Virus record (IMG/VR): IMGVR_UViG_3300037247_000810
Coordinates: 1-64,000 of that record
DNA: 64,000 nt
Direction: 5' to 3' (one strand)
Origin: a virus
The position numbers and the translations under genes were made by a program. Under the pieces are notes generated by a model. It was not told where the DNA came from. It did not search any database and was given only the letters and a program-made list of their open reading frames with translations. Below are positions 42,700-46,395 of the stretch, one piece after another (position 1 is the first letter of the stretch; the number at the start of each line of letters is the position of its first letter).

Positions 42700-42745
42700 C
42701 GGTGCCGGTGGAGGGAGTCGAACCCTCTTCTTACCCTTGACCGGC
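42700..42745 (-). ncRNA. mini-tRNA 1 (acceptor + T arm only)
   Basis: GCCGGU/ACCGGC stem, GAGGG-UUCGACU-CCCUC T arm, ends ACCG. Confidence 0.75.
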
Positions 42746-42820
42746 TGGAGCCATCGGAGGGAATCGAACCCTCTCCTGCGGTTTACGAAACCGCTGCACA
42801 GCCACTTGTGCTTCGATGGC
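42746..42820 (-). tRNA. tRNA-Thr(CGT)
   Basis: Cloverleaf, loop TTCGTAA, CCA. Confidence 0.9.
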
Positions 42821-42906
42821 TGGTAGCCTCGGCGAGAGTCGAACTCGCACGCCGTTTCCGGCCGGGGCTTCTAAGACCCCTACGTCTACCATTCCGTCAC
42901 GAGGCT
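42821..42906 (-). tRNA. tRNA-Leu(TAG)
   Basis: Loop CTTAGAA, long variable arm; A1 overlaps upstream CCA. Confidence 0.9.
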
Positions 42907-42981
42907 GGTACACCTGGTAGGAGTCGAACCTACAATCTCTCGGATGTGAACCGAGCGCCTTAGCCTTTGGGCCACAGGTGC
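42906..42981 (-). tRNA. tRNA-Val(CAC)
   Basis: Loop TTCACAT. Confidence 0.9.
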
Positions 42982-43056
42982 TGGTGCTTCGGGACGGATT
43001 TGAACCGCCGACGCCGCGCTCTTCAGGCGCGCGCTCTACCCCTGAGCTACCGAAGC
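42982..43056 (-). tRNA. tRNA-Phe(GAA)
   Basis: Loop CTGAAGA. Confidence 0.92.
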
Positions 43057-43057
43057 G

Positions 43058-43134
43058 TGGTGGGCAATACAGGACTCGAACCTGTGACCTCTGCGATGTC
43101 AACGCAGCGCTCTAGCCTGCTGAGCTAATCACCC
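43058..43134 (-). tRNA. tRNA-Val(GAC)
   Basis: Loop TTGACAT. Confidence 0.92.
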
Positions 43135-43209
43135 TGGAGCGGAAGAAGGGACTCGAACCCTCGACATTCTCGTTGGCAACGAGACATTCTACCACTGAAT
43201 TACTTCCGC
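43135..43209 (-). tRNA. tRNA-Gly(GCC)
   Basis: Loop TTGCCAA. Confidence 0.92.
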
Positions 43210-43296
43210 TGGTGTCACCGGCGAGAGTCGAACTCGCACCCCCTTGCGGGGACAAGGCTCTCAACCTTGCATGTCTACCTGTTCCATCACGGTGAC
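43210..43296 (-). tRNA. tRNA-Leu(GAG)
   Basis: Loop TTGAGAG, long variable arm. Confidence 0.92.
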
Positions 43297-43372
43297 TGGT
43301 GAACTCGGTAGGAATCGAACCTACGACATCCGACGTATCAGATCGGCGCTCTAACCCCTGAGCTACGAGTCC
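43297..43372 (-). tRNA. tRNA-Ile(GAT)
   Basis: Loop CTGATAC. Confidence 0.92.
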
Positions 43373-43448
43373 TGGTGACAGCGGGTGGACTTGAACCACC
43401 GGCCTTCGCCTTATGAGGGCGCTGCTCTACCAACTGAGCTACGCTGCC
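43373..43448 (-). tRNA. tRNA-Met/Ile2(CAT), elongator type
   Basis: Loop CTCATAA, paired G1:C72. Confidence 0.88.
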
Positions 43449-43526
43449 TGGTAGCCCCAGCAGGATTCGAACCTGCGACGTTCCGCTTAAGAGGCGGCTG
43501 CTCTGGCCGGACTGAGCTATGGGGCC
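43449..43526 (-). tRNA. tRNA-Lys(CTT)
   Basis: Loop CTCTTAA. Confidence 0.92.
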
Positions 43527-43612
43527 TGGTGCGCAAGGAGGGAATCGAACCCTCAAACCCTAGTGGGCACACGGTTCTGAGCCGTGCGTGTTTACCGTTT
43601 CACCACTCGCGC
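43527..43612 (-). tRNA. tRNA-Leu(CAG)
   Basis: Loop CTCAGAA. Confidence 0.92.
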
Positions 43613-43700
43613 TGGTGGGGCAGGTAGGACTCGAACCTACGGAGACCGTTAAGGCCAGCAGGGTTACAGCCTGCCGCAATTGCCGCTATGCGACTACCCC
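43613..43700 (-). tRNA. tRNA-Tyr(GTA)
   Basis: Loop CTGTAAC, long variable arm (bacterial type). Confidence 0.92.
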
Positions 43701-43702
43701 TT

Positions 43703-43776
43703 TGGAGACCCCGGCCGGATTCGAACCGACGATAACCGGGTTGCAGCCGGTTGCCTTACCACTTGGCCACGGGGTC
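43703..43776 (-). tRNA. tRNA-Cys(GCA)
   Basis: Loop CTGCAAC, U73. Confidence 0.92.
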
Positions 43777-43849
43777 TGGCACACCTGGTAGGAGTCGAAC
43801 CTACTCTCACGGGTTTGGAGTCCGGTCGGCGCATCCCGCGCTCAGGTGC
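43777..43849 (-). tRNA. tRNA-Trp(CCA)
   Basis: Loop CTCCAAA; short D loop. Confidence 0.85.
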
Positions 43850-43924
43850 TGGCTGTCGGACTAGGATTCGAACCTAGAACTTCCTGATTCAGAGTCAGGC
43901 GTCATACCGTTAGACCATCCGACA
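43850..43924 (-). tRNA. tRNA-Gln(CTG)
   Basis: Loop CTCTGAA, U1:A72. Confidence 0.92.
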
Positions 43925-43998
43925 TGGATGCGGGAGCAGGAATCGAACCTGCATTCACGGGTTCAAAGTCCGACGTCCGACCTTTAGACGATCCCGCA
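43925..43998 (-). tRNA. tRNA-Gln(TTG)
   Basis: Loop CTTTGAA, U1:A72. Confidence 0.9.
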
Positions 43999-44085
43999 TG
44001 GTGCGCCGGGAGGGAGTCGAACCCTCATGCCCCTGGAAGCACACGGGTTTGAGCCGTGCGTGTCTACCAATTTCACCACCGACGC
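43999..44085 (-). tRNA. tRNA-Leu(CAA)
   Basis: Loop CTCAAAC. Confidence 0.92.
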
Positions 44086-44163
44086 TGGTGGGCCAGGTGG
44101 GAGTCGAACCCACAAGAGACACGGGGTTTAAGCCCGCCGCATATACCATTCTGCTACTGGCCT
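44086..44163 (-). tRNA. tRNA-Leu(TAA), short variable region
   Basis: Loop CTTAAAC. Confidence 0.88.
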
Positions 44164-44827: not shown

Positions 44828-44913
44828 GTGTGCGGCGGCCTGCATCACAGTGTGCCTACTAACATATAGGGTGGAGCCCAATGTTTCGGCACACGCCGCC
44901 GCCATCCACATTC
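44828..44913 (-). ncRNA. unknown hairpin RNA with loop-E-like motif
   Basis: GCGGCGGC/GCCGCCGC, GUGUGCC/GGCACAC and ACAU/AUGU helices. Confidence 0.5.
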
Positions 44914-44960
44914 TGTGTCGGCTGCGGGAATCGAACCCACCTAACACCAGTTTAGCCGAC
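44914..44960 (-). ncRNA. mini-tRNA 2 (acceptor + T arm only)
   Basis: Perfect 7-bp GUCGGCU/AGCCGAC; GUGGG-UUCGAUU-CCCGC. Confidence 0.78.
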
Positions 44961-45037
44961 TGGCGACCCCTACGGGATTTGAACCCGTGACCTCCGCCTT
45001 GACAGGGCGGCGAGCACAACCACTGCTCCAAGGGGCC
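44961..45037 (-). tRNA. tRNA-Asp(GTC)
   Basis: Loop CTGTCAA. Confidence 0.92.
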
Positions 45038-45122
45038 TCGTTGCTAGCGCAGGTGCCCTTGGCCTTGGCTCCCCGACCGACCCGCTAGCTAGTCGACCGG
45101 ATCAACGCTGTACCGAAGGGCT

Positions 45123-45198
45123 TGGTGGCGGAGGCAGGATTCGAACCGACGTTCTCTTGCTTATGAGGCAAGCGAGATGACCACTTCTCCACTCCGCT
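45123..45198 (-). tRNA. tRNA-Met(CAT), initiator-like
   Basis: A1:C72 mismatch, fMet-like body, lacks 3 G:C anticodon-stem pairs. Confidence 0.85.
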
Positions 45199-45273
45199 TG
45201 GCGGCCCATCAGGGAATCGAACCCTGCTCTGATGCTTGAGGGGCATCTATCCTATCCGATAGACGAATGGGCC
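45199..45273 (-). tRNA. tRNA-Glu(CTC)
   Basis: Loop CCCTCAA (C33). Confidence 0.85.
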
Positions 45274-45349
45274 TGGTCGGGACGGCAGGATTCTAACCTG
45301 CGATTCCGTGCTCCCAAAGCACGTGTGTTGAACACTACACTACGCCCCG
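45274..45349 (-). tRNA. tRNA-Pro(TGG)
   Basis: Loop TTTGGGA; T loop TTAGAAT. Confidence 0.88.
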
Positions 45350-45426
45350 TGGTCGGAGTTGCAAGACTCGAACTTGCGGCCCCCGCGTCCCGAACGCGGT
45401 GCTCTTCCTGGCTGAGCTAAACTCCG
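45350..45426 (-). tRNA. tRNA-Pro(CGG)
   Basis: Loop TTCGGGA. Confidence 0.92.
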
Positions 45427-45502
45427 TGGGGTGATCGAGGAGATTTGAACTCCCGCTAAGAGGGCCACAACCTCTTGTGCTAACCACTACACTACGACCA
45501 CC
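45427..45502 (-). tRNA. tRNA-His(GTG)
   Basis: Loop TTGTGGC; encoded G-1:C73. Confidence 0.92.
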
Positions 45503-45503
45503 T

Positions 45504-45577
45504 TGGAGCGCCTAGCGGGAATCGAACCCGCGAACTCTGCTTGGAAGGCAGATATGTTGCCCCTACATCACAGGCGC
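45504..45577 (-). tRNA. tRNA-Gly(TCC)
   Basis: Loop CTTCCAA. Confidence 0.92.
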
Positions 45578-45652
45578 TGGTACGGGCGGTGGGACTCGAA
45601 CCCACACCGAACGGTTTAAAAGACCGCTGCTCTGCCTTCGAGCTACACCCGC
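45578..45652 (-). tRNA. tRNA-Lys(TTT)
   Basis: Loop CTTTTAA. Confidence 0.92.
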
Positions 45653-45728
45653 TGGTAGCGTCGACGGGATTCGAACCCGCTCCGTCCGGTTTGAAAGACC
45701 GGCGACCTATCCTGTAGTCGACGACGCT
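45653..45728 (-). tRNA. tRNA-Glu(TTC)
   Basis: Loop CTTTCAA. Confidence 0.92.
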
Positions 45729-45804
45729 TGGAGCCTTCGGCGAGATTCGAACTCGCTGCCTCGTTCTTACCAAGAACGCGCTCTACCAATTGAGCTACGA
45801 AGGC
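45729..45804 (-). tRNA. tRNA-Thr(GGT)
   Basis: Loop TTGGTAA. Confidence 0.92.
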
Positions 45805-45812
45805 TTGTTATC

Positions 45813-46142
45813 GAGCAATCGGGTCGTAAGCCGCTTTCTGTTTCTCTGCCTACATCTCTCTAGCTGTCACGCGGTCGCTGCCAAACTACCCGCCGCGCCT
45901 CCGGCCCCCTAACGCAATCCGTCTTTTCACACGACCTCCGTGTCTCCGGGTCTCGGCAGGCTCGGTGGCCCGCTACCCGTAGTCGCTGTTCGTGACATCT
46001 CGCCGGTCTCTTGCCCGACGGCCCGCCTTATTAGGGACGGGTAGGTTGTTTGGCGGCCGAGCGGACTTTCCTCAAGGGCCTCGTGGTGCAAACGCCTCGC
46101 GGCTCCCACCAGACGATCCTGCGTAGGCACGTCCGATTGCTC
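45813..46142 (-). ncRNA. rnpB: RNase P RNA (ribozyme), reduced architecture
   Basis: P1 GAGCAAUCGG/CCGAUUGCUC; P2 UGCCUAC/GUAGGCA; CR-I GAGGAAAGUCC; CR-IV AGAGAGAU; CR-V ACAGAAAGCGGCUUA; P4 CCGCU/AGCGG. Confidence 0.9.
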
Positions 46143-46145
46143 TCT

Positions 46146-46196
46146 TGGCAGCCGGTCGCGGAATCGAACCGCACGGAGGTCAACCAGACCCCGGCT
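46146..46196 (-). ncRNA. mini-tRNA 3 (acceptor + T arm, GCCA end)
   Basis: AGCCGG/CCGGCU; UGCGG-UUCGAUU-CCGCG; directly 5' of the RNase P RNA. Confidence 0.78.
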
Positions 46197-46271
46197 TGGT
46201 GCCCTGAGCGGGAATCGAACCCGCATCTGCCGCTTAGGAGGCGGCTGCGCTATCCATTACGCCATCAGGGT
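46197..46271 (-). tRNA. tRNA-Arg(CCT)
   Basis: Loop CTCCTAA. Confidence 0.9.
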
Positions 46272-46346
46272 TCAATAGGCATCCGTGCCGATGGCCTTCC
46301 TGGCCCCAATACCACGGCCCGCCTGAGTTAAGGCACACGGGCCGGA

Positions 46347-46395
46347 CGGTCGACTGCGCGGGGATTTGACCCCATAGCGCCAAGCGCCGCAGCCG
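46347..46395 (-). ncRNA. mini-tRNA 4 (degenerate T arm)
   Basis: CGGCUGC/GCAGUCG + ACCG; GGGG-UCAAAU-CCCC. Confidence 0.55.

Follow-up and report, generated by a model that had tools for sequence, protein, structure and literature searches.

Why would a phage operon in which tRNA genes are packed nearly end to end also carry tRNA-like elements that have no anticodon arm? The window analysed here, the first 64 kb of the 103,459-bp single-contig IMG/VR record IMGVR_UViG_3300037247_000810 (CheckV completeness estimated at 82%), raises this question. Its minus strand carries an array of 42 CCA-encoding tRNA genes (42746-46769), found with ARAGORN and Rfam and separated by spacers of mostly 0-1 nt, together with four elements of 46-51 nt, here called the mini-tRNAs m1 to m4. 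Because the array is on the minus strand, every element is read as the reverse complement. We consider with moderate confidence, on sequence grounds, that the mini-tRNAs serve in cis as pseudo-tRNA marks for processing, within a polycistronic tRNA operon laid out for maturation by RNase P. Support for this reading comes from their position, from selection confined to the minihelix, from their 3' tails, and from insertion cases in related phages.

Anatomy of the four mini-tRNAs

An earlier note on this DNA had described four elements that keep an acceptor stem and a T arm and lack an anticodon arm, each starting 0-1 nt after a tRNA CCA. Parses, folds, and a genome-wide descriptor bear out both statements. 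In m1 (42700-42745, minus strand), the acceptor GCCGGU/ACCGGC has 6 bp and one mismatch, the linker is 11 nt long, the 5-bp T stem closes the loop TTCGACT, and the tail is ACCG. The m2 element (44914-44960, minus strand) has a perfect 7-bp acceptor, a 13-nt linker, a 5-bp T stem with the loop TTCGATT, and the tail ACA. The acceptor of m3 (46146-46196, minus strand), AGCCGG/ACCGGCU, again has 6 bp and one mismatch and is followed by a 16-nt linker, a 5-bp T stem with the loop TTCGATT, and the tail GCCA. The most elaborate element is m4 (46347-46395, minus strand), with an 8-bp acceptor, a 13-nt linker holding a 4-bp D-like hairpin, a 5-bp T-like stem with the 6-nt loop TCAAAT, and the tail ACCG. 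Acceptor and T stems thus stack as 6 bp and a mismatch plus 5 in m1 and m3, 7 plus 5 in m2, and 8 plus 5 in m4, and the linkers of 11-16 nt compare with about 40 nt in a tRNA. Minimum-free-energy folds of m2, m3, and m4 consist of exactly the acceptor stem, a small hairpin, and the T arm. The T arm of m1-m3 reads GGTTCGAYTCC (GGTTCGACTCC in m1, GGTTCGATTCC in m2 and m3) and fits the motif GGTTCRANYCC. This motif is missing from m4, whose T loop is non-canonical when compared with TTCRANY.

We searched both strands of the 103,459-bp genome with a strict descriptor. To match, a site had to fit the T-loop consensus, form a T stem of 5 bp and an acceptor of 6 bp, and have no more than 34 nt of linker. 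The four matches were m1, m2, m3, and a 69-nt tRNA-like element, all on the array strand and within the array. Shuffled genomes gave 0.1 matches, which excludes chance for the mini-tRNAs. None of the four elements was called a tRNA by ARAGORN (0/4), and none matched the tRNA family RF00005 even at E-values up to 10. The m4 sequence scored 27.9 bits (E = 0.014) against the mascRNA-menRNA family RF01684, too low to count it as a member since the gathering cut-off is 42.5 bits; no RF01684 match was found for m1-m3.

The 3' ends also set these elements apart. A CCA end is absent from three of the four mini-tRNAs, compared with none of the 42 tRNAs of the array, all of which encode it (p ~3e-4). 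An RCC tail is nevertheless present in m1 (ACC followed by G), m3 (GCC followed by A), and m4 (ACC followed by G), and m2 ends in ACA. In type A RNase P RNA, the P15 loop is the pairing partner of an R73-C74-C75 tail. An RCC tail without A76 fits a cleavage signal or RNase P determinant and not an amino-acid acceptor.

Placement and conservation across related arrays

Three of the mini-tRNAs start immediately (0 nt) after the CCA of a tRNA, m1 after the last tRNA of the array (Thr(cgt)), m2 after Asp, and m3 after Arg(cct); between the CCA of Arg(tct) and m4 there is a gap of 1 nt. Among the 46 units of the window (42 tRNAs and 4 mini-tRNAs), at least 30 nt of non-tRNA sequence follow only five, and four of these five are the mini-tRNAs. 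Under random placement, the chance of four in five is C(5,4)/C(46,4) = 3e-5.

We then asked how the same junctions look in other phages. Searches of GenBank phages with megablast, blastn, and tblastn found no relative of the window and returned generic tRNA matches only, and an IMG/VR scan with the single terminase protein gave no match. Terminase homologues of 42-94% identity were present in metagenomes, and a terminase alignment (A1) was used to retrieve loci from IMG/VR and JGI/ENA metagenomes. This yielded nine distinct loci with a homologous tRNA array upstream of the terminase gene on the same strand: L001 (=L019), L004, L007, L012, L016, L017, L018, L020, and L021 (=L022). Their terminases range from 85% down to 47% identity to that of the window.

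Across the ten arrays, a mini-tRNA starts 0-1 nt after a CCA at about 21 of about 33 tRNA-to-non-tRNA junctions in a hand tally, and the relaxed descriptor used at these junctions matches 0.2-0.4% of background start positions. The mini-tRNAs fall into about seven sequence families, each of which has a downstream non-tRNA segment (hereafter cargo) in most or all of its members. An acceptor/T mini-tRNA also follows the last tRNA in eight arrays (the window, L004, L007, L012, L016, L017, L018, and L020); the array of L021 ends in a hairpin with ACCA and that of L001 in a degenerate element. The mini-tRNAs are thus strongly tied to tRNA-to-non-tRNA junctions.

The insertion cases come from two mobile cassettes. 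In L018, a mini-tRNA, a Shine-Dalgarno site, and an HNH endonuclease gene stand between Asp and Ser(gga), a pair that is contiguous in L007 and L004. A similar cassette in L001 separates the RNase P RNA gene from Thr(ggt); in the window these two adjoin. In both, the mini-tRNA lies exactly at the former zero-spacer junction, and the 3' limit of the cassette is the +1 base of the next tRNA. The mini-tRNA precedes the start codon by about 30 nt. The two open reading frames (ORFs) match PHROG 23251 (HNH endonuclease; E = 8e-25 and 5e-22) and have no Pfam match. The window itself has m2 and the segment after it (cargo D) in the same slot between Asp and Ser(gga) as the L018 cassette.

Array-internal ORFs that end at the +1 base of the next tRNA were found at L001 6497-7086, L018 3182-3718, L018 5034-5564, L016 942-1422, and L004 2200-2563. 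The first two have the HNH-endonuclease PHROG match and their own minihelix at the start, and the other three are recognised solely by shared protein motifs. The ORFs at L018 5034 and L016 942 come directly after a tRNA, and the ORF at L004 2200 has its own promoter-like site.

Homologues in the same slots allowed us to follow three of the four mini-tRNAs through the relatives; no homologue of m2 was found in the nine related loci. The m3 slot lies between Arg(cct) and the RNase P RNA gene, and the elements that L001, L007, and L017 have there share the AGCCGG/ACCGGCU acceptor and end in ACCA. They diverge in the T stem (UGCGG/CCGCA, GCGGG/CCCGC, UGAGG/CCUCA), and the linker length ranges from 8 to 28 nt. 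Pairing holds in 95.8% of the cells of this family (alignment A3), compared with 19-46% when the partner column is slid, and three T-stem pairs have changed on both sides. The m1 slot is occupied after the last tRNA in six relatives, that tRNA being Thr(cgt) or Cys depending on the array. Although the m1 stems differ at most positions, 91% of pairs are kept against 42-53% in the slid controls, with six pairs changed on both sides and a covariation score reached by 0 of 500 shuffles. For m4, homologues follow Arg(tct) in L001, L007, L017, and L018 and form two sub-types with a 7-bp or an 8-bp acceptor; their T loops read TCCGAAT or CCGAAY. The acceptor and D-like hairpin of this family are 98% paired, and five pairs have changed on both sides.

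The earlier note had pointed to covariation in related phages as a check on its proposal, and the outcome is clear in these three families, in which 91-98% pairing goes with compensatory changes. We conclude that the mini-tRNAs are under structural selection. That selection seems restricted to the part that processing enzymes would read, because the m1 linker shrinks to 1 nt in L004 and grows to 70 nt in L016. The tails follow the same pattern. Six of the seven m1 sequences keep ACC, with G or U at position 76, and m4 and most of its homologues keep A73-C74-C75, again with G or U at position 76. Mini-tRNAs that do end in CCA (m3, the HNH-linked elements, and both mini-tRNAs of L021) are followed by AU-rich trailers.

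The related arrays contain further tRNA-like elements. A 74-nt element of L012 (969-1042) has a T arm and 3' acceptor strand that are 93% identical to window m1 over 27 nt. It belongs to a set of acceptor-closed, non-canonical tRNA-like elements of 60-127 nt (L016 1667-1793, L018 3810-3901, L016 3261-3320, and L012 969-1042), some of which lie between two tRNAs.

A proposed processing mark and its rivals

Acceptor/T minihelices are established minimal substrates of RNase P. We infer each cleavage step of the proposed mechanism from the layout described above. Since the encoded CCA of almost every tRNA abuts the +1 base of the next, a single RNase P cut would at once generate the mature 3' CCA of tRNA n and the 5' end of tRNA n+1. 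Where the next element is not a tRNA and is instead the RNase P RNA, a small RNA, an HNH gene, or the terminator region, the acceptor/T minihelix would take the place of the tRNA. RNase P, either the host enzyme or the phage RNA with a host protein, could then still free the upstream tRNA with a mature 3' end. The 82%-complete record has no Pfam match to RnpA, a CCA-adding enzyme, or RNase Z, and therefore the protein side would be supplied by the host. The CCA end is an anti-determinant for RNase Z, and ends that lack it would be open to that enzyme. Mini-tRNAs with an NCCA end and an AU-rich trailer (m3 and the HNH-linked elements) would presumably be treated like ordinary CCA-encoded bacterial tRNAs. 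Those ending in ACCG or ACCU (m1 and m4) could not be aminoacylated and might either be cut by RNase Z or be retained on the cargo.

Several observations weigh against this reading. Some ten junctions in the relatives, together with the junction between Met and 45038-45122 in the window, run from tRNA to cargo without a mini-tRNA, two of these cargos being HNH genes, so a mini-tRNA is not required. The earlier note's proposal that the elements are dedicated cleavage adaptors is supported in part, by the junction association, the selection, and the RNase P determinants; "dedicated", in the sense of needed, is not supported. The m4 homologue of L001 lies directly between two tRNAs and has no cargo. 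The sequence after m4 varies from 0 to 154 nt, and the window copy of it has no BLAST match in the relatives, so here it is m4, and not a cargo, that is the conserved gene. The D-like hairpin and non-canonical T loop of m4, the invariant acceptor of m3, and the linker motif AGGRUA found in three m1 copies all exceed what a bare cleavage mark would need. The ACA end of m2 means that this element has no RCC tail. Finally, RNase P alone cannot free the 5' end of a cargo. It cuts 5' of the mini-tRNA, so the mini-tRNA would stay on the cargo unless a second enzyme cuts. The earlier note had held that the mini-tRNAs define the 5' end of the cargo RNA, and this part of its proposal is not supported, as RNase P cuts on the other side and m3, which precedes the RNase P RNA, has the CCA that deters RNase Z.

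The alternative that survives best is that the mini-tRNAs are stand-alone, non-decoding tRNA mimics, released from the operon to work in trans. They could, for instance, be decoys or sponges that draw off defence nucleases directed at tRNAs or toxins that modify the acceptor end, or they could bind host enzymes that recognise tRNAs; their adjacency to cargo would then be secondary. The persistence of m4 in five phages without conservation of what follows it, the cargo-free m4 of L001, the retained D-like hairpin of m4, and the retained acceptor sequence of m3 would all suit such a role. We nonetheless consider it unlikely. A mimic of the mature or charged end would be expected to retain the CCA, which is absent from three of the four window elements and from most m1 and m4 homologues, and the range of m1 linker lengths leaves only the part read by processing enzymes conserved. 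Action in trans also gives no reason to expect a start so strictly placed 0-1 nt behind a CCA, or a preference for non-tRNA junctions and operon ends.

A mini-tRNA might instead stay attached as a 5' domain of the downstream RNA, giving a protective 5' structure to the HNH mRNA or the small RNAs, or, in the case of m3, forming a domain tethered to the RNase P RNA that resembles a substrate or aids folding. The side on which RNase P cuts would leave the mini-tRNA in just this position. The gap between the m3 CCA and helix P1 of the RNase P RNA is only 3-6 nt in four phages, the mini-tRNAs of the HNH cassettes stand close to the start codon, and the genome has no match to an RNase Z, CCA-adding enzyme, or RnpA of its own. 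The RNase P RNA genes of L016 and L018, however, have promoter-like sites of their own and no mini-tRNA, so the RNase P RNA does not need one. Moreover, m1 in L018 is followed by a terminator only, m4 in L001 is followed by a tRNA, and the cargos after m4 are unrelated to each other. A general role as a 5' domain is in our judgement improbable.

It is very improbable that the mini-tRNAs are neutral relics of tRNA genes that decayed after internal loss of the D and anticodon arms: degenerate remnants do exist (L017 4260-4326, which lacks CCA and whose GU-rich acceptor is weak, and the L001 m1, which has lost its T arm in an array of only about 19 tRNAs), but the compensatory changes keep pairing in three families whose carriers have terminases only 60-85% identical, which rejects neutral decay for three of the four elements, and the start site after the CCA is conserved as well. 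The earlier note had listed decayed tRNAs as an alternative and had taken full tRNAs or unselected decay at homologous positions in relatives as grounds for refuting its own proposal. Neither was the case: in the relatives, the slots homologous to the mini-tRNAs hold mini-tRNAs and no full tRNA, nor do they show unselected decay, with the exception of the degenerate L001 m1. Its more specific suggestion, that m4 is a relic of Pro(GGG), was based on the tRNA-Pro-typical C1:G72/A73 of m4 and on the absence of Pro(GGG) from the array, and it was not confirmed. No mini-tRNA has a recognisable parent tRNA. In a comparison of each mini-tRNA with candidate parents, the best identity was 17-25 of 31 acceptor/T positions, mostly in the T loop, and no parent was identified.

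The reading as RNase P processing marks can be extended. It is possible, though somewhat short of probable, that the tRNA operons of this lineage are organised for RNase P-only maturation helped by a phage RNase P RNA, that minihelices act as a general "full stop" which lets any non-tRNA insert (a ribozyme gene, a small RNA, a mobile HNH cassette, or the terminator region) spare the neighbouring tRNA in a zero-spacer array, and that mobile cassettes carry their own mini-tRNA for harmless insertion.

Cargos, operon context, and known systems

The cargo after m3 is a divergent RNase P RNA-like gene of 330 nt (45811-46140, minus strand) that begins 3-6 nt after the m3 CCA and is directly followed by tRNA-Thr(ggt). 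The earlier note had named RNase P RNA as one of the cargos. The gene gives a full-length match to RF00010 (26 bits, E = 2e-5, below the gathering score), contains GAGGAAAGUCCG and ACAGAA..CGGCUUA, and has counterparts of 77-80% identity in six related arrays, between which helix P1 shows compensatory changes. All promoter-less copies inside an array (the window, L001, L007, L017, and L021) have a mini-tRNA. The L016 gene (2206-2586) has a promoter-like TTGACT-17-TACCAT, and the L018 gene (4323-4806) has a weaker promoter-like motif. A scan of IMG/VR with an RNase P RNA pattern returned one 4-kb fragment only, without tRNAs. In the literature that we could cover, which was incomplete and does not prove absence, we found no paper on a phage-encoded RNase P RNA.

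The other cargos are less readily named. Cargo A, a 75-nt non-tRNA segment between m4 and Arg(cct) (46272-46346, minus strand), is not conserved in relatives. Cargo D, between m2 and Ser(gga) (44828-44913, minus strand), is an 86-nt long imperfect hairpin for which no homologue was found. BLAST found no match to either in the related loci. That the mini-tRNAs directly precede non-tRNA segments is correct as the earlier note had it; that these are structured is weakly supported for the short cargos, whose fold z-scores are -1.6 and -2.35, the latter for cargo D. An 85-nt insert between Met and Asp (45038-45122, minus strand) starts 1 nt after a CCA, has no T arm, and forms a long hairpin with GCCCUU/AAGGGC as its closing stem and ACCU directly behind. 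It marks the only window junction without an acceptor/T mini-tRNA, and its fold is no better than that of shuffles (z-score -0.42). It may be a hairpin-type RNase P signal that lacks a T arm. Cargo A, cargo D, and this insert are each unique within the genome.

Cargo E (42468-42699, minus strand), the RNA of about 230 nt that separates m1 from the terminator, is partly conserved in L017, L016, L012, and L004. Shared motifs include GGCUAACGUCG and GGGCGGCG, and a downstream GCCGCC could pair with the latter; no Rfam family matched cargo E. We considered cargo E as a tmRNA-like tag and dropped the idea, as its relatives do not keep the apparent reading frame. No match to RF00023 occurs in the window (the features sought being a GGGG...UCGAC 5' end, G3:U70, and a GGAC-T arm-CUCCACCA 3' end). 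Some related arrays do contain genes of 80-84 nt that match RF00023 end to end at 58-66 bits (L017 3467-3550, L007 6762-6841, and L018 5865-5944), with a further one recognised by sequence (L021 3140-3220). These genes consist of the tRNA-like domain only (GGGG..UCGAC, G3:U70, ..CUCCACCA) without a tag-coding part, are distinct from the mini-tRNAs, and recall the reduced tmRNA of jakobid mitochondria. Two distant arrays share an insert of 330-400 nt (L012 403-805 and L021 557-900) with common motifs such as GUGUAAGCCCC.AAACACAGCAGGGA. It has a long-range closing helix in L012, where it directly follows a tRNA, and is preceded by a mini-tRNA in L021; no Rfam family matched the 400-nt insert of L012.

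The operon is bounded by a promoter-like site upstream of its first tRNA (TTGACA-17-TATATT, 46819-46847, minus strand; 11 of 12 consensus matches) and, at its end, by a terminator-like GC hairpin with a U-rich tail (42430-42467, minus strand), which was read from the sequence and is kept in relatives. ARAGORN called 40 of the tRNAs, and Rfam added two just below the cut-off, Trp(CCA) with 28.4 bits (43777-43849) and, with 23.9 bits, a conserved tRNA-like element of 69 nt (44240-44308, minus strand). The latter has a normal acceptor stem, T arm, and CCA but no D stem, and most related arrays retain it behind Ser(gct) or at a corresponding place. The anticodon loop of this element, CUUGUAA, gives UGU (Thr), the sole Thr isoacceptor otherwise missing from the array, and it may be a working tRNA without a D arm. 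A 12-nt tandem duplication (GAAGCGGUGCCA; 44399-44410, minus strand) of the Arg(tcg)/Ser(gct) junction makes the only short non-zero spacer of such kind in the array. The tRNA-Arg(UCU) gene (46397-46466, minus strand) is just 70 nt long with a reduced D arm, and its L017 homologue was missed by ARAGORN.

The window has a GC content of about 60% and comes from a tailed phage, with genes for the portal (29604-31154), tape-measure protein (16263-19679), and large terminase (38408-39883) all on the minus strand. DNA sequencing runs containing this phage are from marine sediment, marine, and cold-seep metagenomes. Contigs of four such runs (marine sediment, marine, and cold seep) mostly reflect cross-mapping of tRNAs of other organisms and yielded nothing usable on the junctions, although a contig from another sample (run X3) spans m2 and the start of cargo D.

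Among known systems, the closest analogues of the mini-tRNAs appear to be the t-elements of plant mitochondria and mascRNA. Forner et al. (2007; PMC1920247) described t-elements as carrying the GGTTCRANYCC T-loop motif and as having ends that match transcript ends, and a role in cis as signals to RNase P and RNase Z was proposed. Like the mini-tRNAs, they are non-decoding tRNA-like structures in long transcripts, and m1-m3 share their motif. Unlike them, they are non-canonical cloverleaves dispersed in an organelle genome beside mRNAs, with mapped transcript ends. The mini-tRNAs are 46-51 nt minihelices placed in register in a zero-spacer phage tRNA operon, where their neighbours are homing-endonuclease genes, small RNAs, and an RNase P RNA. 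In the case of mascRNA and MEN-beta, an RNase P cut at the 5' end of the tRNA-like structure reportedly makes the mature 3' end of the upstream RNA. The likeness lies in a small tRNA-like element downstream of another RNA, and in the weak RF01684 match of m4; the mascRNA system differs in being eukaryotic and nuclear and in keeping a reduced anticodon stem, and the RNA upstream of the mini-tRNAs is a tRNA.

Synthetic acceptor-stem/T-arm minihelices are minimal substrates of bacterial RNase P. The mini-tRNAs resemble them in the stack of about 12 bp formed by acceptor and T stems, m1-m3 also in the canonical T loop, and m1, m3, and m4 in the 3' RCC(A), and m1 of L004, with its 1-nt linker, is essentially a textbook minihelix. 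They differ in being natural, genome-encoded, conserved, and position-specific, in having a linker of 8-28 nt in most cases, and in several instances in lacking A76. Species 1 and 2 of phage T4 and RNA1-3 of phage T5 are tRNA-like stable RNAs of phage tRNA clusters whose function is unexplained. These too are non-decoding, tRNA-shaped, and co-transcribed with the tRNAs of their clusters, but they are larger or otherwise shaped, a distinction that we draw by description and not by sequence. In mitochondrial tRNA punctuation and the tRNA-miRNA units of gammaherpesvirus 68, tRNAs or tRNA-like cleavage marks free neighbouring RNAs from a polycistronic precursor, but there the hosts and enzymes are different, the shapes are full or near-full tRNAs, and the downstream RNA is released by RNase Z. 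The novelty of the present case is that the elements are placed systematically where a tRNA meets a non-tRNA segment and where operons end, next to the RNase P RNA of a phage and leading its mobile cassettes. In our literature search, whose incomplete coverage is not proof of absence, we found no description of minihelix punctuation in phages.

If the mini-tRNAs are RNase P marks, the tRNA punctuation known from organelles, some eukaryotic RNAs, and viruses would extend to bacteriophages, and the way in which mobile and ribozyme genes live within tightly packed tRNA operons would be explained. The elements would also give designers of synthetic polycistronic RNAs compact processing modules of natural origin. 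The T4- and T5-type look-alikes have long been without an accepted function, and the mini-tRNAs, reduced to the part that RNase P reads and placed where a cutting mark is needed, provide a clear and testable case. Should they indeed act as full stops, this would suggest a function for the long-unexplained tRNA-like stable RNAs of phage tRNA clusters.

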